From: a virus
Lineage: Duplodnaviria > Heunggongvirae > Uroviricota > Caudoviricetes
Virus record (IMG/VR): IMGVR_UViG_2731957955_000011
Reading direction: 5' to 3' (one strand)
DNA: 33,875 nt
Shown: piece by piece, positions 1-33,875 of the stretch
Numbering within the stretch: the first letter of the stretch is position 1
How the letters are laid out: every line of letters starts with the position of its first letter
Notes under the pieces: generated by a model
The model's input: only the letters and a program-made list of their open reading frames with translations
What the model was told of the DNA's origin: nothing
Database searches by the model: none
Translations under genes and position numbers: made by a program

Positions 1-789
1 GTGTATAAACACGGTGTCATCATTGACTGGATTATCAACTTTGTCTTTTAATTCATAGTTAATACTATATCGGGTATTATATTTCTCCGAAATAAACTTC
101 ACTTTACCATTCAATAATACATTCAGTACATCTTGATCAAGGTGGGTGATTTTACTTACCCAATCTGGGTCACGCAACATTTCAATAGCTTTTGACGAAA
201 TGTTATTTAGATTCCACTCATCAATATTTATCAGTAAAAAACCAGCATTGAAATATCCAGAAGCTAACTGTGGTGTAGTTAATACCGAGGCTCGATTTTG
301 CCACCATTCAACATCTCTTTCAGCTACAACTGCGGCAATTTCATTAGTAGAAAATTGATAATCTAAGAGTTCTTTAATACTACCCTTGCAAGCAATATCT
401 GCATCAAGATATAGTATTTTTTCATGTTTATGATAGAAATAATCTGCAATTATAAATCGAAAATATGTTGCGTAAGTCCAGTTTTTCGTGCTTGGTAATG
501 ACTTCAGCTTATCACAATTGATAACATAAATATTAATTCTTGAATTATATTGTTTTGCTAAATCAGAAAAATATAATTTGTCTTTATCACTGATATAATC
601 TGTGAAAACATGAAATTCACAAGAGATTTCTCTATTGTTTAATAGAATAGATGCGATGGCTACACCACATCCAAAAAGAAAATTTCTGTCAATACCAAAT
701 GCTATATCAAGAGTATTTTTAGATCTTATATTTTGATAATGAAAATTATACTCAAAAAGGATGATGTCACTATCATTGAGTTGAGACAT
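1..789 (-). CDS. LPS outer-core alpha-1,3-glycosyltransferase, GT8 family (WaaI/WaaO-like); partial, 3' end beyond window start
   Basis: Minus-strand frame open from ATG at 789..787 to position 1 (263 codons). My translation begins MSQLNDSDIILFEYNF and contains GT8 motifs LDADIA (DxD), GYFNAGFLLINIDEW and HLDQDVLN. Sits directly downstream of waaP. AT-rich compared with neighbours. Not in the ORF track because it is truncated by the window edge. Confidence 0.7.
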   Translation of the reverse strand, partial: MSQLNDSDIILFEYNFHYQNIRSKNTLDIAFGIDRNFLFGCGVAIASILLNNREISCEFHVFTDYISDKDKLYFSDLAKQYNSRINIYVINCDKLKSLPSTKNWTYATYFRFIIADYFYHKHEKILYLDADIACKGSIKELLDYQFSTNEIAAVVAERDVEWWQNRASVLTTPQLASGYFNAGFLLINIDEWNLNNISSKAIEMLRDPDWVSKITHLDQDVLNVLLNGKVKFISEKYNTRYSINYELKDKVDNPVNDDTVFIH

Positions 790-831
790 ATTTATTCTGT
801 ATCCAAAATTTTGGCAAAAATAAGTTACGGG

Positions 832-1629
832 TTACAACGATTTTCGAATCGTTCTTTCCCTGATTTTTGTGGCTTTTGCTTCTGCTTGCGACAGCAGTCC
901 TTGTTCCTGCTTGAGAATGTCTTTAAGCGGGGCGGCAAAATACACTTTCATAAACCGCCAGATATCCCGCTGAGTCAGGCCGATATTCATCGAAGAAAAA
1001 TAAAGCCCAATAAGATCTTTATCCCGCCAACGACGTGGAACGCGCGTGCGAAGCTGCGCCCGGTGCAGGTCAATTACCGAAATTTTTAACTCCTCTTCCT
1101 TACCGGAAAAAGGCAAGTGCAGCAGGAAATGACAGATATAACAGTCACGGTGGTTAATGCCCGCAGCATGCATATCGCGCACCATCGTCGCGACACGCTT
1201 AATAAGCATACGCTTTACGCGAACATCTGGAGGGTTAGTCGCCCAGTCAGCACTGTAATCTTCAAGACTTATGGTTGGTGTCAGATCTTCGGTAATAATA
1301 AATGAAGTTCTGGTCAGCGGATTCATGCCTTTTTCGCCAAATGCCACCCCATACATAGTATCAACGCCGACATCCCGCAGTCGATGAATCGCATTCCATT
1401 CGCGGTCAGCGCCTAATACTGGCATCCGCAATGAGAGTAAATTTTTGATTATCTCTTTCAGGGTCGTGCCGCGATGCCATTTGAGAAAATAGCTTTTGCC
1501 CGCCATTTCAAAGCGCAGAGTACGGCGAGTTTCCAGTTCACGAAATACCTCACCCTGCAAGGTTTTAACTTCCTCAAAAGGATCTTTGCCGCGCCATAAC
1601 GTGGCAAACGGCTCTTTAAGTTCAACCAT
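832..1629 (-). CDS. waaP: LPS core heptose(I) kinase WaaP
   Basis: ORF track 832..1638 (268 aa); sequence [28 protein letters not shown]... recognised as WaaP/RfaP. Start placed at the second in-frame ATG (MVELK), giving 265 aa; the alternative start is 1638. Overlaps the waaG 3' end. Confidence 0.9.
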
Positions 1630-2746
1630 CCAGACCACCCGTTATGATATCCGCCGCTTTCTCTGGCAGACTGTATAAATCTTGTGTATCAGCATAATGT
1701 CGCGCATTTTCCGCCCAGGCCTGGCGCAATGAAGATTGCGTTAACGCTTTGCGTAAAATCTCATTCAATGTTTCCTGGCGGAATGGCTCAGCAATAGCCT
1801 CGCCGCAATTAGCGTCGACAATATAATGCGCATAGCCACAAACGGCTGTTGTTAGTACCGGTAATCCTGCAGTAATCGCTTCCAGCAGCACAATTCCCGC
1901 CGCTTCCTGGTAGGCAGGATGCAGTAATAAATCCGCCGCCGCCATTAATTCCGAGACATCATTGCGCCCCGAGAAAAAGTGAACATTACTGCGCACGCCG
2001 CGTTTTTCTGCCAGCGCCTCAAATTTTCGCGGTTTATCCTGCCCAACAACATATAGCAATGTGTTGTGGCGCAGCGAATCCGGTAACGAAGCAAGTGCTT
2101 CAATGGAACGATCGACACCTTTACGCGTGAAGTCTGAACCGACCTGCAACAATAAATATTGTTGTTCGGTTATTCCATTCTTCTTACGGAAGATTTCACG
2201 GCTATTGGCTGGCTGCTGGCTATATTTACGATCAGGATAAATCCCCGGTGGCAGAATATGAAAACGCTCCGCTTCAGTCTGATAATGTTTCTGGAAATCG
2301 GCGATTTGCTTATCTGTCAGCATCAGCAGCTGTGTCGGCTTGCCCTGTTCGAAGGTTGCCCGCTCAAAGGCGGCATAATGGCGATAACGTGACGTCAGGC
2401 GATAGAAAAAGCCTTTTTCCTGCGCTACTTTCTCGGCATAACAAACATCAGCGGCATAATAAACGTCCAGCCCCGGCATTTTGTTGAATCCAACGACTTT
2501 ATCGACGGGATGTTCGCGTAAATGTTTTTGCACCCAGGCAAAATACTCCGCATTGCGCCCGTGATTGGTATGCGATTTAACCGGCACTTTGATCAGTTCA
2601 AATACATCAGGGCATTCGCCTTCCCACGACTGGGTATAAACCCGAACATGATGACCTCGGGCGGCGACTGTCTGAGCAATACGCATAAAATCACGCTGCA
2701 AACCGCCAAAGGGAAAATATTTATATAAACAAAAAGCAACGATCAT
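1622..2746 (-). CDS. waaG: LPS core glucosyltransferase I WaaG (GT4)
   Basis: 374-aa [42 protein letters not shown]... recognised as WaaG/RfaG. 4-bp overlap with the waaQ stop suggests translational coupling. Confidence 0.92.
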
Positions 2747-3801
2747 AACGACGTACCTGTCGTGGAGGAGGGCAGTAATTTATCGACAGCAGCAATGACA
2801 TCTGCCGCCGGAATAACCGAAAGATACATCTCATTTCGGTCACGCTGATCGCGCGTTGGCATTTCCCGGTAATCTCCCGCCCAGAATTGAATCATGTTAT
2901 TTGACCAGGGACGCCAGAAAATATGATCTGTCGCACCAAACAGCGATATCAGCGGCGTATTAACTGCAGCGGCAATATGCGCCGGTGCGGAATCAACGCC
3001 AATAAACAGCTGCGCATGATCGATTAACGCACCAAGTTCCGGGAAGGTCACCTTTCCAGCCAGCGCCGTTACTGGTGGCGTCTGGCATCCCTGCGCAATT
3101 TCATTGACGCAGGCCAGATCGTCTTTATCTGGGCCGGACGTCAGAACGACTTCATAACCACGAGCATGTAAGGCATCAATCACAGCGGAAAACTTGGCGT
3201 TGTCCCAGCATTTGAAGATTTGCCGCGCCGTAGGTTGGATAACCACATAATTTTGTCCAACACCAGCGTGATCAAGTTCGCGACGCATACGTTTCCAGCT
3301 TGCAGGCGGGTAACTCATGGTTGTCTGCTTCACCAACGAATCAAGTCCCAATGGTGTCAGCACGGATAAGTTACTTTCCACCACATTTCCACCCTGCAAC
3401 GGCACCAAATGGGTGAAACTTTTACGCCAAAAAGCAGACTGCCGATGATGATAATCCTGGGAAATTTTCACACGAGCATTTAATAAGCGAACCAGTATAG
3501 CAACCATCCATTGATCGGTAAGATTGACGATAAGGTCATACTTATTGGCACGTAATACCTTGATGAGATGAAAAAAGTTGGCAATTTTTTCTGAGGCTTT
3601 TGCTTTTTTATTTTTTATGCCGTAGAGCGCGTTAATCTCTGGATTTTCAGACAGGATCGGGATGGTGTCCTGATAAAGCAGCACATCGATTTTTGCGTCA
3701 GGGTAATTTTTTTTCAGCGAACTAATGACGGGAGTAGTTAATAACATATCCCCATGAAAACGCATCTTAATGAGCAAAATTCTTCGAAATGGCTTATCCA
3801 C
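2743..3801 (-). CDS. waaQ: LPS core heptosyltransferase III WaaQ (GT9)
   Basis: ORF ...RILLIKMRFHGDMLLTTPVISSLKKNYPDAKIDVLL... recognised as WaaQ/RfaQ. The ORF-track start at 3801 is a GTG; the first in-frame ATG (MRFHGDM) lies 36 nt downstream. Exact start uncertain. Confidence 0.85.
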   Translation of the reverse strand: MDKPFRRILLIKMRFHGDMLLTTPVISSLKKNYPDAKIDVLLYQDTIPILSENPEINALYGIKNKKAKASEKIANFFHLIKVLRANKYDLIVNLTDQWMVAILVRLLNARVKISQDYHHRQSAFWRKSFTHLVPLQGGNVVESNLSVLTPLGLDSLVKQTTMSYPPASWKRMRRELDHAGVGQNYVVIQPTARQIFKCWDNAKFSAVIDALHARGYEVVLTSGPDKDDLACVNEIAQGCQTPPVTALAGKVTFPELGALIDHAQLFIGVDSAPAHIAAAVNTPLISLFGATDHIFWRPWSNNMIQFWAGDYREMPTRDQRDRNEMYLSVIPAADVIAAVDKLLPSSTTGTSL

Positions 3802-3850
3802 AAGTAACTCTTTTTGTTGAGATTATCCGATTAAGGTGAAGCAGAAAAAG

Positions 3851-3862
3851 CACGCTACCGCC
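3851..3862 (-). promoter_or_regulatory. ops element (RfaH recruitment site, part of JUMPstart) in the waaQ operon leader
   Basis: Plus strand reads cacgctaccgcc at 3851..3862; the reverse complement GGCGGTAGCGTG is the 12-nt ops consensus on the waaQ coding strand, about 50 nt upstream of the waaQ start. Confidence 0.75.
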
Positions 3863-4213
3863 CCAGGCTCAACAGCTACCTGAATACTGATACCGCACTG
3901 ATATTGACGCGCTAGTGTATCACTTCTTTCGCGGCAATCCGACCCGAATGATTTTTAAGCACATTGTTGATTTTCAATAAAGAAATCAATCAAATAAAAT
4001 CATTAGCAACCATATTCTTTCACTGTTGCTCTGCGATTCCTTCCTGCACGTACAGCAGAAATCAATGAATCGCATAAAAATACAAAAAAAGTATAGATGT
4101 TCAGCAAGAATTGGCGGGTAAATTGCTATTTAAGTCAAAAACGGGAAAAGTAATGGTAAAGCCACAGCTAAATACATAGAATCCCCAGCACATCCATAAG
4201 TCAGCTATTTACT

Positions 4214-5978
<1,765 letters not shown>

Positions 5979-5985
5979 CGTTTAT

Positions 5986-6007
5986 GCCGGATGGTATGCC
6001 ATCCGGC
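5986..6007. terminator. perfect 9-bp hairpin between convergent coaD and mutM
   Basis: gccggatgg-tatg-ccatccggc, read directly; lies between the coaD stop (5978) and the mutM stop (6017). No strong U-tract, so function as terminator or REP-like element is inferred. Confidence 0.45.
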
Positions 6008-6016
6008 GCGCATGAA

Positions 6017-6826
6017 TTACTTCTGGCACTGCCGACAATAAAACGTTGCCCGCTGCGCATGTTTAGTCGCCACAATCGGCGTACCGCACACCCGACACGG
6101 CTCGCCTTTTCGCCCGTAAACCTGCAATTCCTGAGCGAAATAGCCCGGTTTACCATCACTTTGCAGAAAATCTTTCAGCGTTGTACCACCCTGCTCAATC
6201 GAACGCAGCAACACCGCTTTAATCACCCGAGCTAACAATTCACACTCTGCCAGCGACAGTGATGACGCCAGCCGATCCGGATGGATCCCCGCCGCAAACA
6301 GTGATTCGCTGGCATAGATATTCCCTACCCCTACCACCAGCTTGTTATCCATCAGCCACGGTTTAATCGCCGTTTTTTTCTTCGCGCACTTCTGATGCAG
6401 ATACTCACCATTGAAATCGTCGCTAAGCGGCTCCGGTCCAAGATGGGTCAGCACATTATGCCCTTCCAGCTCTTTGGTCCACAGCCAGGCACCAAAGCGG
6501 CGCGGATCGGTGTAGCGCAGCACTTTGCCGTTGCTCATCACCAATTCCACATGGTCATGCTTTTCAGGGGGAAGTTCTTCTGGAAGGATGCGCAGGCTGC
6601 CAGACATCCCTAAATGAATGATAATCCAGCCCTCAGGCAGCTCCAGCAGCAGATATTTAGCCCGCCGCTGCACGCTAAGCACTGGTTGGTCGCTTAAACG
6701 GTAGATCTCTTCTGAAACCGGCCAGCGCAAGCGTCCGTTGCGCACCACTGCATGAAGAATGGTTGCACCAACGAGATGCGGTTCTATGCCGCGGCGGCTG
6801 GTTTCAACTTCGGGTAATTCAGGCAT
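6017..6826 (-). CDS. mutM: formamidopyrimidine-DNA glycosylase MutM/Fpg
   Basis: 269-aa ORF starting [37 protein letters not shown]..., with the C-terminal zinc finger [24 protein letters not shown]. Confidence 0.93.
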
Positions 6827-6877
6827 AGCATCTCCAGGAATGAACAGATGCAGTCAATATGGGGGCAAGCAGATAAC

Positions 6878-6906
6878 AAAAAACCCCGCCGGAGCGAGGT
6901 TTTTTG
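6878..6906 (-). terminator. intrinsic terminator downstream of rpmG (between rpmG and mutM)
   Basis: On the minus strand: cctcgc-tccg-gcgggg hairpin (6 bp, one G-U pair) followed by uuuuuugu; flanked by an A-run on the other side. Confidence 0.5.
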
Positions 6907-6923
6907 TTACATCAAAGCGAGAA

Positions 6924-7094
<171 letters not shown>

Positions 7095-7111
7095 TTATTT
7101 CCTCTAAGTAC

Positions 7112-7369
<258 letters not shown>

Positions 7370-7564
7370 TTAGCTCGAGCTTCGTATGGGGTATTGGCGC
7401 CTCGTCAGGCTTTACAGCCCGGTCATCGCAGTTCTATGTGAACTCTCGATTGCCAGGCCCAAATGCCAAACCCGAGATTCTCAAAGGTGGCGTAGTATAC
7501 GCTGACTCAGCGATGTGCTCAAGTCCCGAACAGACAAAGATCCCGAAGGATCGCGCATAGCGGG

Positions 7565-8239
7565 TTAAATCCAGCCGCGTTCGGCAAAAGAAACATACTC
7601 TCCACGCCCAATCACGATATGGTCGAGCACGCGTAAATCCATGAACTGACAACTCTTTATTATCCGTTCAGTAATGAGTTTATCCGCTTTACTGGGTTCA
7701 GCACAACCCGAAGGGTGATTATGTGCAAGGATCAGCGCCGAGGCGTTTATTTTTATCGCTTCGCGGATAATTTCCCGAGGATGGACTTCAACATGGTTTA
7801 GCGTGCCGGAAAAAAGACGGCTATGCGTTATAACCCGGTGTTGGGAGTCGAGAAAGATCACCATAAAGATCTCCCGCTCCTCACCCGTGAGCTGGCTTTG
7901 TAAAAATTCCCTCGTCATCTCCGGGCTGAGTAAAGGGCTTTCTTCACGCATCCGCACGTTGTAGTAACGCCGCGCCAGTTCAGCAATCCCCTTTAACTGG
8001 GCAAATTTCGCCACGCCAATTCCATGAACGCCACTAAATTGTTCATATTCAGAGGTTAACAAGCCATAAAGAGAGCCGAAATTCTCCAGCATCTCTTTTG
8101 CCAGGGTTAATACATCTTTACCGCGCGTTCCGGTACGCAGAAATAGCGCCAGCAGCTCGACATCCGTTAAGGCGCTAATACCAAACTTCAGCATTTTTTC
8201 GCGCGGCATCAACAGCTGTGAATTGTTTTTCACCTTCAC
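7565..8239 (-). CDS. yicR: UPF0758 / RadC-like JAB-domain protein YicR
   Basis: 224-aa [45 protein letters not shown]... with the JAMM-like motif ILAHNHPSG. Confidence 0.9.
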
Positions 8240-8404: not shown

Positions 8405-9625
8405 ATGAGCCTGGCCGGTAAAAAAATCGTTCTCGGCGTTAGCGGCGGTATTGCTGCCTATAAAACCCCTGAACTGGTGCGTCGTTTGCGCGATCGCGGG
8501 GCCGACGTCCGCGTAGCCATGACCGAAGCGGCAAAAGCCTTTATCACCCCACTTAGCTTGCAGGCGGTTTCTGGTTATCCCGTTTCCGACAGTCTGCTGG
8601 ACCCGGCAGCCGAAGCCGCTATGGGCCATATTGAGCTGGGTAAATGGGCTGATTTAGTGATTCTCGCCCCTGCCACGGCAGATTTGATTGCCCGTATTGC
8701 TGCCGGAATGGCGAATGACCTGGTATCGACGATTTGTCTGGCTACACCTGCGCCTGTAGCCGTGCTCCCCGCCATGAACCAGCAGATGTACCGTGCCGCT
8801 GCCACGCAGCATAATTTAGAGGTGCTTGCTTCCCGTGGTATGCTCATCTGGGGGCCAGACAGTGGCAGTCAGGCTTGTGGTGATATCGGTCCTGGGCGAA
8901 TGCTCGATCCGTTAACCATTGTGGATATGGCGGTGGCGCATTTTTCGCCCGTCAACGACCTGAAACATCTGAACATTATGATTACCGCCGGCCCGACGCG
9001 TGAACCGCTCGATCCGGTGCGTTATATCTCTAATCACAGCTCCGGCAAGATGGGTTTTGCTATCGCCGCCGCCGCTGCCCGTCGTGGCGCGAACGTCACG
9101 CTGGTATCAGGTCCGGTTTCACTACCGACGCCACCGTTTGTTAAACGTGTTGATGTGATGACTGCGCTGGAAATGGAAGCCGCCGTGAATGCTTCTGTAC
9201 AGCAGCAAAATATTTTTATCGGTTGCGCCGCCGTGGCGGATTATCGCGCAGCTACCGTGGCCCCAGAGAAAATCAAAAAGCAGGCCACGCAGGGTGATGA
9301 ATTAACAATAAAAATGGTTAAAAACCCCGATATCGTCGCAGGCGTTGCCGCACTAAAAGACCATCGACCCTACGTCGTTGGATTTGCCGCCGAAACAAAT
9401 AATGTGGAAGAATACGCCCGGCAAAAACGTATCCGTAAAAACCTTGATCTGATCTGCGCGAACGATGTTTCCCAGCCAACTCAAGGATTTAACAGCGACA
9501 ACAACGCATTACACCTTTTCTGGCAGGACGGAGATAAAGTCTTACCGCTTGAGCGCAAAGAGCTCCTTGGCCAATTATTACTCGACGAGATCGTGACCCG
9601 TTATGATGAAAAAAATCGACGTTAA
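8405..9625 (+). CDS. coaBC: bifunctional phosphopantothenoylcysteine decarboxylase / synthetase CoaBC (Dfp)
   Basis: In-frame ATG at 8405 gives [28 protein letters not shown]... (406 aa); the ORF-track start at 8333 is an upstream extension. Confidence 0.93.
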
Positions 9626-27892: not shown

Positions 27893-30211
27893 TTACAACG
27901 TAATTGTCAGCGCATTCCCTTGAGGCTTCACCACCAGCCCCTGCTCACTTTCAGCCTGCGAACCGTCTTGCAGACCATTTACTTTCACAACATTGCGCAG
28001 GCACAGCGTCCAGTTCTTCGCCTCGCCCGCACCAGTCACAGTAATCGTGTTGCCAGTACGTGCTGCTTTTAAAGTAAAGATCACCGATCCGTCAGTAGCG
28101 GGCACTTCACAGACGGCTTCATGCCCGTCTTGCAGATTAAAGAGGTGGAATGCCGTGCCTTCGTGCCACACGTAATCGGGACGTTGATCGTTGTTGCCCA
28201 GCGCCAGTAGGGTGTTATCACGCACATAAATGGGCAGACTCAGGAAGCTGTGCTGCTGTTTATGCCAGCGACTACCGTCGAGCTCATCGTTGTGCCACAG
28301 GTGTGTCCAGCGACCTTCCGGCAGGTAGAACTGCACATCGCCCGCTTCAGTGAACACCGGCGCAACCATCACGTTGTCGCCTAACATGTATTGACGGTCA
28401 AGGTAATCACAAGCCGGATCGTCCGGGAACTCCATCATCATGGCCCGCATCATCGGCGTACCCCGCGCGTTCGCACGCGCAGCTTCACGATACAGATACG
28501 GCATCATGCGGCATTTCAGTTGCGTGAAGAAGCGCACCACATCACAGGACTCATCATCGTAGGCCCACGGCACACGATAAGATTTGCTACCGTGTAAACG
28601 GCTATGGCTGGAGAGCAAACCAAACGCGCACCAGCGTTTGTAAACGTGCGCCGGAGCGGTATTTTCAAAGCCGCCGATATCGTGGCTCCAGAAGCCAAAA
28701 CCTGAAAGGCCAATAGACAAACCACCGCGCAGGCTTTCCGCCATTGATTCGTAGTTAGCGTAACAATCGCCACCCCAGTGTACCGGGAATTTCTGCGCAC
28801 CGACGGAGGCCGAGCGGGCAAACAAGACAGCTTCTTCCTCACCAACGGTGTCCTTGAGCACGTTCCACACCAGTTCGTTGTAGATGTACGCATAATGGTT
28901 ATGCATTTTCTGCGGATCGGAACCGTCAAACCACTGAACATCAGTTGGGATACGTTCGCCAAAGTCGGTCTTAAAGCAATCAACGCCCATCGCGACCAGA
29001 CCTTTCAGTTTGTCGGCGTACCATTTGCAGGCATCCGGATTGGTAAAGTCATAAATCGCCAGACCTGGCTGCCATTTATCCCACTGCCATAGCGAACCGT
29101 CCGGGCGTTTGAGTAAATAGCCTTTCTCTTGTAACTCTTTAAAGACGGGGGATTTTTGACCGATATAGGGGTTAATCCAGACGCAGATTTTCAGTCCTTT
29201 CGCTTTCAGGCGGCGGATCATCCCTTCCGGGTCAGGGAAAGTCAGCGGGTCCCACTCAAAATCGCACCACTGGAAGGCTTTCATCCAGAAACAGTCAAAG
29301 TGGAAAACATGCAGCGGCAGATTGCGTTCCGCCATACCATCGATAAAGCTGTTTACCGTCGCTTCGTCGTAGTTGGTGGTAAATGAAGTGGTTAGCCACA
29401 GGCCGAAGGACCACGCGGGCGGCAGCGCCGGACGACCAGTAAAGCGGGTATAACGATCAAGTACCGCTTTCGGCGTCGGGCCGTCGATAACAAAGTATTC
29501 GAGATATTCACTCTCAACGCTGAACTGCACTTTGGAGACTTTCTCCGATCCCACTTCAAAAGAGACACACTGGGGATGATTGACCAGTACCCCATAACCA
29601 CGGTTAGTCATGTAGAACGGGATATTTTTATACGCCTGTTCAGTACTTGTGCCGCCGTCCCGGTTCCAGGTCTCTACCGTCTGGCCATTGCGCACCAGGG
29701 CAGTAAAGCGCTCTCCCAGACCGTAAACTGTTTCGCCAACGCCAAGATCAAGCCGCTCAAACATATAATTGCGTTGATTATTCGTGTCCTGCACGTAGCC
29801 ATTATTTTTCACCTGACTACCGGTAATACGTTCGCCGTTGCGCAGAAAATCCAGTGACCAGAACTCACCTTTGCTGACACGCGCGCTTAAGTTGCCACTT
29901 TTAAACTCAGCATAACGTTCTGTGTTTTCGATTGTGACCTTCACGTCCTGCAAAATATTGAGCGGATAATGAGGACCGTTATTCAGCGCCCCCTGAAAAT
30001 GCTCAATCCGCACACCGACAATACCTTCCTGTGGGGAGAAAAAGCGCAACGTAAATAAAGGAGTATCAAGCTGCCAGGTACGTTCACGCACATCACGGGG
30101 GGCAGCATAGACCACCATTTCATTATCCTGCTGTTCAACCTCGAACACCTGAAGCGGGTGAATCAAATTGAGGCCAGGTTGAATCAACCAGTTTCCATCG
30201 CTAATTTTCAT
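27893..30211 (-). CDS. yicI: alpha-xylosidase YicI (glycoside hydrolase family 31)
   Basis: 772-aa [56 protein letters not shown]... with GH31 catalytic-region motifs (WINPY, KTDFGE). Confidence 0.92.
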
Positions 30212-30220
30212 TGCCGTTCC

Positions 30221-31603
30221 TTAGTTCTGCACTTCTTGAGAGGTGAATTGTTGCTGGCAACGGCGTTTACCCTGAGCCAGCTGTTCCATAACGGTTTTCA
30301 GATTGTGCGTCGTGAGTGAGTAGTAGCGTTTAGCGATAATCGCGCTCAGCAAATAACAGATCGCCGGAACAATCGTGAATAGCGCAATAATGATGCTAAT
30401 CGTGGCGCTGTTCTGCGCTTTTTCTGCCGCATCATATCCGCCATAAGCCAGCATCCAGCCGATAAGAGCGCCGCCGAAGGCCAACCCCAGTTTGAGCACA
30501 AACAGCGTGCCAGCAAAACTGATCCCGGTCAGGCGTTTACCATTGCACCACTCGCCGTAGTCGACGGTATCGGACATCATTACCCACTGGATAGGTGTCA
30601 CCAGTTGATGCAACACACCAATCACGAAGATGAAGACAAACATAGTGATGCTGGCCTGCATGGGAACAAAGAACATCGCGAGGCTAATCACTGCCAGCAG
30701 GGCGTTCGTCCACCAGAAGATAGTGACTTTACATTTCCAGTCGGTCAGAGGTTTTGCCAGTGCGGAACCAATCAGGTTACCCACGCAATAAGTGGTGAGA
30801 AAAGCGACAAACACTTCCGGCGTGCCCAAAATCCATGTGACGTAATACATCATCGCCCCACCGCGTACGCACACCGCCAGGATATTGAAAATGGTTAGTA
30901 AACCGACAATCCGCCACTGGTCGTTTTGCCAGATATCACGTAAATCTTCCCGCATAGACGTTGTTGTAGGTGGTGCTTCAACGCGTTCTTTAGTGGTGAA
31001 GAAACAAAATGCCAGCATCATGAATGCCACCACGGAAAGGACCGCGATACCGCCCTGGAAACCGAGTGGTTTATTATCACCGCCAATTAAATTAACCAGT
31101 GGCATCATCAGAACAGTAGAAAGCATGCCTCCCGCGGTCGCCAGCACAAAACGCCAGGATTGCAGCGAGATACGCTGAGTCGGGTCATTGGTGATTACAC
31201 CACCCAATGCGCAGTAAGGGATATTGACGACGGTATAAAGTAAGGTAAGTAGGGTGTAAGTAATTGCTGCATAGATCATTTTGCCGTTCATACTGAGATC
31301 TGGCGTGCTATAGGCCAGTACACAGACGATCCCGAATGGCAGTGCGCCAAACAGTACCCACGGACGAAATTTACCCCAGCGAGAGCGCGTTCGATCGGCC
31401 AACAACCCCATGCAAGGATCGGAAATCGCATCCAGTGCACGAGCGACCAAAAACATGGTTCCGACAAATCCGGCAGGAATGCCAAAAATATCGGTATAAA
31501 AGAACATCATATATAACATTACGTTATCGAAAATAATGTGGCTGGCGGCGTCTCCCATGCCATAACCAATTTTCTCTTTAACGGACAACACTTCACTCTT
31601 CAT
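30221..31603 (-). CDS. yicJ: GPH-family (glycoside-pentoside-hexuronide) sugar:cation symporter YicJ
   Basis: In-frame ATG at 31603 gives MKSEVLSVKEKIGYGMGDAASHIIFDNVMLYMMFFYTDIFGIPAGFVGTMFLVARALDAISDP... (460 aa); 9 nt upstream of yicI, so a likely yicJI operon. Confidence 0.9.
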   Translation of the reverse strand: MKSEVLSVKEKIGYGMGDAASHIIFDNVMLYMMFFYTDIFGIPAGFVGTMFLVARALDAISDPCMGLLADRTRSRWGKFRPWVLFGALPFGIVCVLAYSTPDLSMNGKMIYAAITYTLLTLLYTVVNIPYCALGGVITNDPTQRISLQSWRFVLATAGGMLSTVLMMPLVNLIGGDNKPLGFQGGIAVLSVVAFMMLAFCFFTTKERVEAPPTTTSMREDLRDIWQNDQWRIVGLLTIFNILAVCVRGGAMMYYVTWILGTPEVFVAFLTTYCVGNLIGSALAKPLTDWKCKVTIFWWTNALLAVISLAMFFVPMQASITMFVFIFVIGVLHQLVTPIQWVMMSDTVDYGEWCNGKRLTGISFAGTLFVLKLGLAFGGALIGWMLAYGGYDAAEKAQNSATISIIIALFTIVPAICYLLSAIIAKRYYSLTTHNLKTVMEQLAQGKRRCQQQFTSQEVQN

Positions 31604-31858
31604 CTGCTTTTCCTTGATGCTATAGGGGTGCTGAGACCGATAACGCATTTTGTAAACCATCCCTGTGAGAGCGAATATTCCGATATCTGGTTATTAATTT
31701 ATGATTCTTGTTTTATGTGATCGTGGTAGCGTTAATTCCGCTCATATATCATTGTAAAATATGGGTTTTATATGAACTATAATGCTTTCGTGATAATACG
31801 CTGCGTGTATTAGGCGGAAAAAACTGATCTGGGGGATGTAGAAACTCAAGGAAGTAGC

Positions 31859-31864
31859 TATAAT
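31859..31864 (+). promoter_or_regulatory. candidate -10 hexamer (TATAAT) of the selC promoter
   Basis: Perfect tataat 32 nt upstream of the mature tRNA 5' end, followed by a GC-rich discriminator-like sequence; no good -35 seen. Confidence 0.35.
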
Positions 31865-31895
31865 GCGCCCCGCCTCCATGTAGCAATCGAGGCGC

Positions 31896-31990
31896 GGAAG
31901 ATCGTCGTCTCCGGTGAGGCGGCTGGACTTCAAATCCAGTTGGGGCCGCCAGCGGTCCCGGGCAGGTTCGACTCCTGTGATCTTCCGCCA
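31896..31990 (+). tRNA. selC: tRNA-Sec (selenocysteine, anticodon UCA)
   Basis: 95-nt sequence GGAAGATCGTCGTCTCCGGTGAGGCGGCTGGACTTCAAATCCAGTTGGGGCCGCCAGCGGTCCCGGGCAGGTTCGACTCCTGTGATCTTCCGCCA, matching E. coli selC as I recall it; anticodon TCA at 31930..31932; encoded CCA end. Confidence 0.95.
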
Positions 31991-32103
31991 GTTTACCTCT
32001 TCTGAACTCTCCCAATGTCAATAAATCTCTTCTAATCCCTTGTATATCAGTATTTATTTGTATCCTGAGGTCAACCTACTTCACCCCATATCAAGTTTCT
32101 TTT

Positions 32104-32254
32104 GGGGGTACTTTAGGGGGTGTTATTTCCTATTGAAATACAAGCACCCCCATAATAGGAAAAATATGATACATAACAACGGCTTTTAACAATATCTTTG
32201 TTATACAAGGGGTGTATTGGGGGTATCAGGTTAGTTACTGGCAGAAATCCCCCT
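32104..32254. repeat. cluster of G5/C5-containing heptamer repeats plus a 9-bp inverted repeat in the selC-int spacer (candidate integrase or regulator binding sites, attL arm)
   Basis: GGGGGTA at 32104..32110 and 32219..32225; GGGGGTG at 32116..32122; GGGGTGT at 32209..32215; CACCCCC at 32145..32151; TCCCCCT at 32248..32254; tttcctatt (32126..32134) / aataggaaa (32154..32162) perfect inverted repeat. All read directly; function inferred. Confidence 0.4.
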
Positions 32255-32289
32255 CAGGAAGATGAATTCATCAAAAGCCGGAGGATGTC

Positions 32290-33474
32290 ATGGCATTAAC
32301 CGATATCAAAGTGAAAACCGCAAAACCCAAAGACAAACCCTATAAGCTTGCTGATGGCGGCGGTATGTATCTACTGATTAACACTAATGGTTCTAAATAC
32401 TGGCGCATGAAGTACCGCTTTGCTGGTAAAGAAAAGATGCTTTCTATTGGCGTATACCCCGATGTAACGTTAGCCGATGCTCGCGAGAAACGCAGTGAAG
32501 CCAGGAAACTCCTCGCTGCTGGAGGCGATCCAGGGGAGGCAAAAAAGGAAGAAAAAATCGCGCAGCAAATGAGTCTGAAAAATACGTTCGAGGCTATTGC
32601 TCGCGAATGGCACCAGTCAAAAGCTGATCGGTGGTCATTACGCTATCGTGATGAAATCATTGATACCTTTGAAAAAGACATTTTTCCCTACATTGGCAAG
32701 CGCCCTATTGCCGAAATCAAACCAATGGAGTTACTGGAAGCACTACGTAAAATGGAAAAACGTGGAGCTCTGGAGAAAATGCGCAAGGTCCGCCAGCGCT
32801 GTGGTGAGGTGTTCCGCTATGCAATTGTTACTGGCCGGGCAGACTATAACCCAGCCCCCGATCTTGCCAGTGCTTTAGCTACACCGAAAAAAGTACATTT
32901 TCCCTTTCTTACTGCTAATGAACTTCCCCACTTCCTCAACGATCTGGCGGGTTATACCGGAAGTATAATCACTAAGACAGCTACTCAGATCATTATGTTA
33001 ACCGGCGTACGAACACAAGAACTGCGTTTTGCACGCTGGGAAGATATCGATTTTGAGACAAAATTGTGGGAGATCCCGGCAGAAGTAATGAAGATGAAGC
33101 GACCTCATATTGTGCCGCTCTCTGAGCAGGTCATTATGCTATTTAAGCAGCTTGAACCAATCTCAAAACATCATCCCCTAGTCTTTATCGGTAGAAATGA
33201 TCCCCGCAAACCAATTAGTAAGGAAAGCATTAACCAAGTAATTGAATTACTTGGATATAAGGGAAGACTCACAGGGCACGGTTTCAGACACACCATGAGT
33301 ACAATTCTGCATGAACAAGGCTTTAATTCCGCCTGGATTGAAATGCAGTTAGCTCATGTGGATAAAAATTCCATCAGGGGTACCTATAATCATGCCCTGT
33401 ATCTCGATGGCCGCCGTGAAATGATGCAATGGTACGCTGATTACATTGATTCACTCTCCAGCCGGGAAAGTTAA
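32290..33474 (+). CDS. P4-family tyrosine site-specific integrase (tRNA-associated genomic-island integrase)
   Basis: 394-aa ORF MALTDIKVKTAKPKDKPYKLADGGGMYLLINTNGSKYWRMKYRFAGKEKMLSIGVYPDVTLADAREKR... with a P4-Int-like N-terminal arm-binding region and catalytic-core motifs (TGVRTQELRFARWEDID; HGFRHTMSTIL; RGTYNHA). Good ggagga Shine-Dalgarno. Sits 300 bp 3' of selC. Confidence 0.88.
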   Translation: MALTDIKVKTAKPKDKPYKLADGGGMYLLINTNGSKYWRMKYRFAGKEKMLSIGVYPDVTLADAREKRSEARKLLAAGGDPGEAKKEEKIAQQMSLKNTFEAIAREWHQSKADRWSLRYRDEIIDTFEKDIFPYIGKRPIAEIKPMELLEALRKMEKRGALEKMRKVRQRCGEVFRYAIVTGRADYNPAPDLASALATPKKVHFPFLTANELPHFLNDLAGYTGSIITKTATQIIMLTGVRTQELRFARWEDIDFETKLWEIPAEVMKMKRPHIVPLSEQVIMLFKQLEPISKHHPLVFIGRNDPRKPISKESINQVIELLGYKGRLTGHGFRHTMSTILHEQGFNSAWIEMQLAHVDKNSIRGTYNHALYLDGRREMMQWYADYIDSLSSRES

Positions 33475-33577
33475 ATCAGAAATACTTTTCCCTGATATTT
33501 TCCTCAATTAAGTATTTTATCCTCTGGCCTACAAGGCTGGAGGATTTTTGTTATTATATTATTTTTTTTGCGTCTTC

Positions 33578-33875
33578 GGTAATGACTCCAACTTATTGAT
33601 AGTGTTTTATGTTCAGATAATGCCCGATGACTTTGTCATGCAGCTCCACCGATTTTGAGAACGACAGCGACTTCCGTCCCAGTCGTGCCAGGTGCTGCCT
33701 CAGATTCAGGTTATGCCGCTCAATTCGCTGCGTATATCGCTTGCTGATTACGTGCAGCTTTCCCTTCAGGCGGGATTCATACAGCGGCCAGCCATCCGTC
33801 ATCCATATCACCACGTCAAAGGGTGACAGCAGGCTCATAAGACGCCCCAGCGTCGCCATAGTGCGTTCACCGAAT
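33578..33875 (-). mobile_element. IS1 insertion sequence, partial (terminal inverted repeat plus about 300 bp; remainder beyond window end)
   Basis: Starts with the IS1 terminal inverted repeat ggtaatgactccaacttattgatagtgttttatgttcagataatgcccgatgac... and continues as IS1 sequence as I recall it, with insB encoded on the minus strand. Confidence 0.9.
33593..33875 (-). CDS. insB: IS1 transposase InsB, C-terminal part (5' end beyond window)
   Basis: Minus-strand frame ...[93 protein letters not shown], open to the window edge. Confidence 0.88.

Follow-up and report, generated by a model that had tools for sequence, protein, structure and literature searches.

IS1 beside the integrase of the selC island GI3 in Escherichia coli O104:H4 is a rearrangement joint and not a simple insertion

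The stretch of DNA which we analysed (the window; 33,875 nucleotides in full) carries towards its right end, on the minus strand, yicI (27893-30211) and yicJ (30221-31660), followed on the plus strand by the tRNA-Sec gene selC (31896-31990; called by ARAGORN as tRNA-SeC with anticodon TCA), which is the attL-side attachment site of a genomic island. An intact P4-type tyrosine integrase gene, encoding 394 aa, lies 300 bp downstream of this tRNA gene on the same strand (32290-33474). Pfam recognised its arm-binding, central and catalytic domains (Arm-DNA-bind_3, Phage_int_M and Phage_integrase), and the same protein, WP_001218908.1, is common to selC islands with and without IS1. Past the 3' end of the integrase gene a consensus scan predicted a terminator-like hairpin and T-run (33519-33555, plus strand), with a stem of 12 pairs (33519-33545) and then TTTTGTTATT, which has been left untouched by IS1. 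The 9 bp of island DNA abutting IS1, TGCGTCTTC (33569-33577), are presumed to be the original target and are found on this side only. The T-run which precedes this target (33562-33569) varies in homopolymer length, with 8 residues in the window, 7 in O111:H21 15A and 6 in BL21. The window also contains TCATATATC (31742-31750), which was the target struck by this IS1 in the O104:H4 isolate C227-11 '368 shch'.

The IS1 lies on the minus strand with its IRR end first (IRR 33578-33600), and the first 298 of its 768 bp (33578-33875) are present before it runs on past the window. The preliminary description had placed an IS1 end at 33578, about 100 bp past the integrase, and this was borne out: the gap from the integrase stop codon to IS1 is exactly 103 bp, the IRR end from 33578 reads GGTAATGACTCCAACTTATTGAT..., a 54-nt IS1-end pattern matched the window once with 0 mismatches (0 expected in shuffles), and the C-terminal 88 codons of the transposase (the insB' part; 33593-33859, minus strand) matched Pfam DDE_Tnp_IS1 with E=5.7e-48 over profile positions 44-131 of 131. 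By the same 54-nt scan the window holds a single IS1 copy or fragment. All of its bases (298/298) are those of the start of the full 768-bp IS1 in O104:H4 genomes, which extends from GGTAATGACTCC... to ...GGCAGCATCACC, has ...AAGTTGGCAGCATCACC as its end, and is annotated in RefSeq as 'IS1B family transposase, programmed frameshift', the A6C motif being visible in locus L001. In its length and in its imperfect terminal inverted repeats of ~23 bp (GGTAATGACTCCAACTTATTGAT and GGTGATGCTGCCAACTTACTGAT) it is like the IS1A/IS1B-type IS1 of E. coli K-12 and plasmid R100/NR1, and like other members of the family it encodes a DDE_Tnp_IS1 transposase by programmed frameshift, duplicates 9 bp of its target on moving (as in C227-11), and is associated with adjacent deletions and duplicative inversions exactly from the IS terminus. 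It differs in lacking flanking direct repeats, in the T at position 106 and in being an apparent chimera of two resident copies, none of which is essential.

From position 9000 to its end at 33875 the window showed 100% identity over 24,876 bp to 15 complete O104:H4-type E. coli genomes, which include 2011 outbreak strains and 2009 Georgian isolates, and it is therefore the left end of the published 48-kb selC island GI3 of E. coli O104:H4. The far boundary of this island is a 24-bp direct repeat of the selC 3' end (locus L006, 48225-48248) just before setC, 48.1 kb downstream. In FDAARGOS_349 the island starts with the integrase gene, one IS1, a GNAT (ybjA) fragment, Tn21 tnpA/tnpR and a dfrA7 class 1 integron, and continues with Tn6029 (blaTEM-1, sul2, strAB), mer, IS421, tet(A), Ag43 and a yeeU/cbtA module. 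GI3 hosts RD1, the complex resistance locus of E. coli O104:H4 (Roy Chowdhury et al. 2015, PMC4326458), and the published locus shares with the present one its position next to selC, the Tn21/Tn1721 hybrid, the dfrA7 integron, Tn6029, mer, tet(A), Ag43 and yeeU/yeeV. It differs in what is discussed, namely an IS26-driven evolution within the locus; IS1 is never used as a whole word in that paper and the IS1 boundary goes undiscussed. What is new here is the role of IS1 at the left boundary of GI3, which adds detail and no new kind of system.

As the window stops at IS1 base 298, the target-duplication test was run on identical genomes of the source lineage, in which the full element could be read through. 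The O104:H4 IS1 is flanked by TGCGTCTTC on the left and by CAGCGCGCT on the right, and thus has no target duplication; the 8-10 bp (usually 9 bp) duplication which flanks a simple IS1 insertion is missing from the GI3 joint, and TGCGTCTTC is present once only in the entire 50-kb island. The test does pick up duplications: applied as a control to an unrelated IS1 in cM8a, it revealed the 8-bp target duplication AGTAATAT. Furthermore, the empty site could be read in IS1-free relatives, namely O111:H21 15A and cM8a, which have the same integrase protein, and BL21, which is given as having the same or a close one. There TGCGTCTTC is followed directly by AAACTTATT... and then a TPR gene; in longer readings ...TTTTTGCGTCTTC continues into AAACTTATTAC or, written further, into AAACTTATTACAAAAAC..., with the TPR-protein gene ~410 bp after the integrase gene. 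This downstream DNA (AAACTTATT... and the TPR gene) is absent from GI3-type islands. We also looked for the reciprocal junction with synthetic queries joining either IS1 end to TGCGTCTTCAAACTT..., and in neither IS1 orientation did any of 5,426 complete E. coli genomes contain a match across the joint; two records with at least 80% coverage in this search turned out to carry a different IS1 insertion, one that interrupts the integrase gene. The CAGCGCGCT at the far end, the missing empty-site DNA and the lack of a reciprocal junction together identify a deletion or rearrangement joint, and the IS1 beside the integrase gene is such a joint and not a simple insertion. The proposal that IS1 had deleted or rearranged island cargo was therefore upheld, and the read-through which had been advised for deciding it gave the same answer, the 9 bp not recurring. 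On the other hand, TGCGTCTTC, which had been put forward as the duplication of a simple insertion, was placed correctly at 33569-33577 but has no counterpart at the far end. None of the genomes examined preserves the original simple insertion together with its duplication, and the missing direct repeats of this IS1 are attributed to later rearrangement.

The exact joint between the integrase side and IS1 was found in 241 complete genomes, whose right-hand endpoints are of at least eight kinds. We mapped the right flanks on the coordinates of strain MDR_56 (locus L016; left joint 1743/1744), by which ~34 of the 241 genomes stay unassigned to a right-junction class. In MDR_56, PF9285, H3, RUT3575 and WCHEC020031 the endpoint is 2512, at an IS903-like element, and 182 genomes cover the WCHEC020031-type junction query; at this commonest right flank the IS903-like element lacks its first 63 bp, inverted repeat included. 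The endpoints nested further in are 7112 within catA1 (23CRST038), 7382 (PCP07014, in which the left end has moved too, 673 bp into the integrase gene), 7748 and 7813, both within ybjA (EC19 and NRZ103545, respectively), 7919 in O104:H4 (16 genomes with an identical joint, plus C227-11), and 11491 at the IS26 end beside blaTEM-1 (MS8345, APEC E19019 and two FDAARGOS strains). The eighth lies in a DUF987 gene 42,911 bp into the O104:H4 island and belongs to the O104:H4-like strain 17-07187 (locus L024, NZ_CP096976.1; compared with L006 2468-45378). Its chromosome flank is 100% identical to that of O104:H4, with the same left joint, an identical IS1 (0 SNPs) and 0 SNPs in 3 kb after the right joint, and the 42.9-kb deletion starts exactly at the IS1 terminus and has removed all resistance genes, mer, tet(A) and Ag43. 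A constant left junction, variable far ends and no direct repeats make up the classical signature of IS1 adjacent deletion. For IS1 and Tn9 it is typical that adjacent deletions begin exactly at the IS terminus, that inversions arise and that direct repeats disappear (PMC9330008, section 5.2.1), and the adjacent deletions and inversions of IS26 (PMC9330008) are alike in having a fixed IS end, variable endpoints, lost direct repeats and inversions by intramolecular replicative transposition, but IS26 belongs to the IS6 family and makes 8-bp duplications, in contrast to IS1 with 9 bp here.

Some further observations were made on these islands. In PCP07014 (locus L021, NZ_CM129871.1, 1887-3269) IS1 has deleted leftward too, and 657 bp are left of the truncated integrase gene, which would immobilise the island. 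In the commonest island (WCHEC020031; locus L018, NZ_CP033401.1, 32854-45393) a glycan-type gene cluster lies between two IS1 copies in inverted orientation and comprises a GT4 glycosyltransferase, an ABC transporter permease and ATPase, a WsaF-family rhamnosyltransferase and two large hypothetical proteins; IRL faces inward in both copies, and the outer end of the distal copy is short by 18 bp, lost to IS5. In the ST410-type island the IRR end of the distal IS1 is cut by IS5, which abuts an IS66-family element, and its outer flank is unusable for a duplication test.

A precursor-like arrangement was found in MDR_56, whose downstream backbone is the same as in O104:H4. Its order is the integrase gene, a first IS1 (IS1a), an IS903-like remnant with a second IS5-family element and a truncated glycosyltransferase gene, a second IS1 (IS1b), intact catA1, ybjA and Tn21; IS1a and IS1b are direct repeats, and IS1b has the canonical Tn9 joint of IS1 to CGACGCACTTTGCGCC. 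The O104:H4 IS1 differs from IS1a at 19 sites, all of them at positions 567-765, and from IS1b at position 106 only (C vs T). It thus has the base of IS1a, the integrase-proximal copy, at position 106 (T, window 33683; C in IS1b) and the bases of IS1b at all 19 sites between 567 and 765, and it looks like an IS1a/IS1b chimera, the left half of which is marked by the single SNP at position 106. This allele pattern fits a crossover between positions 107 and 566, which would also have deleted the 4 kb between the two copies. In 23CRST038 and PCP07014 position 106 carries the IS1b allele C, which would imply other crossover points, and NRZ103545 and MS8345 have kept an IS1a-type right half, which would imply deletions made directly from IS1a. 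Across strains, IS1 at this same joint occurs in at least four internal SNP mosaics (loci L001-L015, IS1 positions 448-765), which indicates that IS1 copies often convert or recombine with one another.

To the right of the O104:H4 IS1 a 101-bp stub of ybjA is followed by the Tn21 inverted repeat GGGGTCGTCTCAG.... The ybjA stub (GNAT) and then the Tn21 IRtnp GGGGTCGTCTCAGAAAACGG beyond IS1 are features of Tn9/Tn2670, which we take to be the R100 module, with an IS1-flanked catA1-ybjA in which Tn21 is inserted. Related islands keep IS1-catA1-ybjA-Tn21 with the canonical junction of IS1 to CGACGCACTTTGCGCC, and in MDR_56 nothing is missing from the IS1 side of the module; unlike these, the O104:H4 GI3 lacks catA1 and most of ybjA, has one IS1 only, and is no longer a composite transposon. 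The suggestion that the IS1 end may mark a composite structure is thus right for the past, of which the catA1-ybjA::Tn21 remnant is left, and does not hold for the present O104:H4 island with its single IS1. The closest likeness to the O104:H4 joint is on the Salmonella Indiana IncHI2 plasmid pSI67-1 (locus L007, 3101-3310), where IS1 meets ybjA 4 bp away, and this represents a separate IS1 endpoint within that short part of ybjA near Tn21. The O104:H4 IS1/ybjA joint itself was not found on plasmids among the matches listed, most of which have IS1 at other distances from Tn21, pSI67-1 being the nearest, and it appears to be lineage-specific.

Movement of this very copy is seen in C227-11 '368 shch' (NZ_CP011331.1; locus L022, 4668000-4684000), in which an inversion, known from one deposited assembly, has left two identical IS1 copies in inverted orientation. 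The segment with selC and the integrase gene (window 31742-33577) is inverted between both copies, by which selC and the integrase gene have been moved away from yicJ. Of the old joints, TGCGTCTTC is kept by one IS1 and the ybjA joint by the other, and of the new ones, one shows TCATATATC (window 31742-31750) and the other its reverse complement, a 9-bp target duplication in inverted orientation. This is a textbook duplicative inversion by IS1 and direct evidence that this copy transposes. A literature search on Tn2411/selC, MS8345 and C227-11/IS1/inversion returned nothing specific. We also followed up the idea that a high IS1 count could point to a Shigella-like IS expansion, which found no support: with 10-15 IS1-matching places per chromosome, against a median of 11 in E. 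coli genomes with any copy, the IS1 copy number of O104:H4 is normal.

The joint is shared by chromosomes which are otherwise diverged. IS1-bearing islands differ by 0-1 SNPs in the 1,578 bp from selC to the target, while the 2,300 bp upstream of selC show up to 51 SNPs (MS8345, MDR_56, H3), reaching ~107 bp from selC, and IS1-free integrase modules in closely related chromosomes are 5-15 SNPs apart. Identical island left ends were found in chromosomes up to 2.2% different, and the switch maps to selC. Near-identical integrase modules in diverged chromosomes argue for a single origin of the joint, after which several lineages acquired the island at selC, or its left end at the least. The exact integrase/IS1 junction gave 0 matches in species-representative genomes. 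Joined to differing cargo, it is carried by O104:H4, MS8345 and APEC O2:K1:H4, the WCHEC020031 group, MDR_56 and H3. In further selC islands which carry this integrase module, IS1 sits at other positions nearby: in locus L004 (NZ_AP025205.2, 5514-6281) at the start of the TPR gene, in opposite orientation and without a duplication; in cM8a (locus L017, 10931-11698) behind a fragment of a phosphoethanolamine-transferase gene, flanked by an 8-bp duplication; and in NZ_CP034784.1 and NZ_CP178650.1 within the integrase gene. The neighbourhood of the integrase gene is a recurrent landing zone of IS1.

Several other explanations have to be weighed against a rearrangement joint. A simple neutral insertion, with a 9-bp duplication and unbroken island DNA beyond it, would suit the AT-rich intergenic target past a terminator-like hairpin, which is plausible for IS1, and the integrity of the integrase gene; nevertheless, the far-end sequence CAGCGCGCT refutes it for the O104:H4 lineage, TGCGTCTTC has no second copy in the island, the DNA that follows the empty site is gone, no reciprocal junction exists in the 5,426 genomes, and we give it practically no chance. 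The same holds for a false join induced by a repeat at a contig end, a suspicion that the ending of the window within IS1 might raise and which is refuted by a junction 100% identical in 241 complete genomes from many laboratories. That different E. coli lineages acquired IS1 separately at a hot spot could be argued from the several IS1 copies near this integrase, yet these stand at other positions, and the shared joint has one position and one orientation in a 1,578-bp module that hardly varies (0-1 SNPs) despite the divergence just upstream and the 5-15 SNPs between IS1-free modules, which makes independent origins highly improbable.

The remaining two explanations accept a rearrangement but differ on its course. 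By one of them a composite transposon of the Tn9/Tn2670 type (catA1-ybjA::Tn21) inserted in a single step, the IS1 of the window being its left arm, and the distal IS1 and the duplication were lost later. The Tn2670-type remnant beyond IS1 (ybjA stub and Tn21), the IS1-catA1-ybjA-Tn21 order kept in related islands and the glycan gene cluster lying between two inverted IS1 copies in ST410-type islands speak for it. But in the precursor-like island the IS1b attached to catA1 is not the integrase-proximal copy and lies 4 kb further in with different flanks of its own; the O104:H4 GI3 has neither a distal IS1 nor a second TGCGTCTTC; the integrase-proximal IS1 of the commonest arrangement abuts an IS903-like element without its first 63 bp; and none of the 5,426 genomes has a distal IS1 followed by TGCGTCTTCAAACTT. 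We regard a one-step composite insertion as improbable. The other explanation dispenses with a crossover between IS1a and IS1b: one large adjacent deletion would have run from the proximal IS1 through the 4 kb, IS1b, catA1 and part of ybjA, and the right half of IS1 would have been converted later. Such long deletions from IS1a do happen, as NRZ103545 and MS8345 combine an IS1a-type right half with endpoints past IS1b, and several IS1 mosaics exist at this site; given IS1 gene conversion and these other mosaics, the canonical right half could come from any other genomic IS1. Against this, two events are needed, one of them an unlinked conversion, while a crossover with IS1b explains the sequence and the 4-kb loss together, and the IS1b allele at position 106 in 23CRST038 and PCP07014 is what would be expected of crossovers elsewhere. 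We consider the single long deletion unlikely, with some chance of being right.

We therefore favour, with a probability of about 0.8, a rearrangement joint formed by a complete, transposition-competent IS1, which came from an MDR_56-like precursor by crossover and adjacent deletion. The starting point would have been an island like that of MDR_56, with the integrase gene, IS1a, 4 kb of intervening DNA, IS1b and catA1-ybjA::Tn21 in this order. Homologous recombination between IS1a and IS1b would have removed the 4-kb segment and left the chimeric IS1, and an IS1 adjacent deletion from its IRL end, by intramolecular replicative transposition, would then have taken away 1,393 bp (MDR_56 6526-7918) with catA1 and most of ybjA, leaving the 101-bp ybjA stub before the Tn21 inverted repeat. 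The integrase-side junction of TGCGTCTTC with IRR is old and fixed, while IRL has been joined repeatedly to different DNA. The IS1 is still active in the clone, with a later 42.9-kb adjacent deletion of the entire resistance region in one strain and the duplicative inversion of the selC-integrase segment in another. We infer the direction of change because it is irreversible (intact versus truncated catA1 and ybjA), MDR_56 being a contemporary strain and not the ancestor, and the order of events and their enzymology (transposase versus RecA) are likewise deduced.

The event is of an already known kind, as IS1 deletion, inversion and recombination between IS copies are textbook processes, and no new biology has to be assumed. 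It is possible, though we put this forward tentatively from sequence comparison, that GI3 is still moving horizontally, driven by its integrase, and that the IS1 on the integrase side may serve as a point where cargo traded with IS1-bearing plasmids is docked and later trimmed. If true, the glycan cluster, the Tn2670/Tn21 resistance module and Tn6029 would be examples of such cargo, and this would explain the identical integrase-IS1 joint with different cargo in unrelated lineages. The joint between the integrase side and IS1, the T at IS1 position 106 and the IS1/ybjA joint together provide a typing marker across E. coli lineages, and the IS1 accounts for how the multidrug-resistance region of O104:H4 is attached to its island, trimmed and lost.
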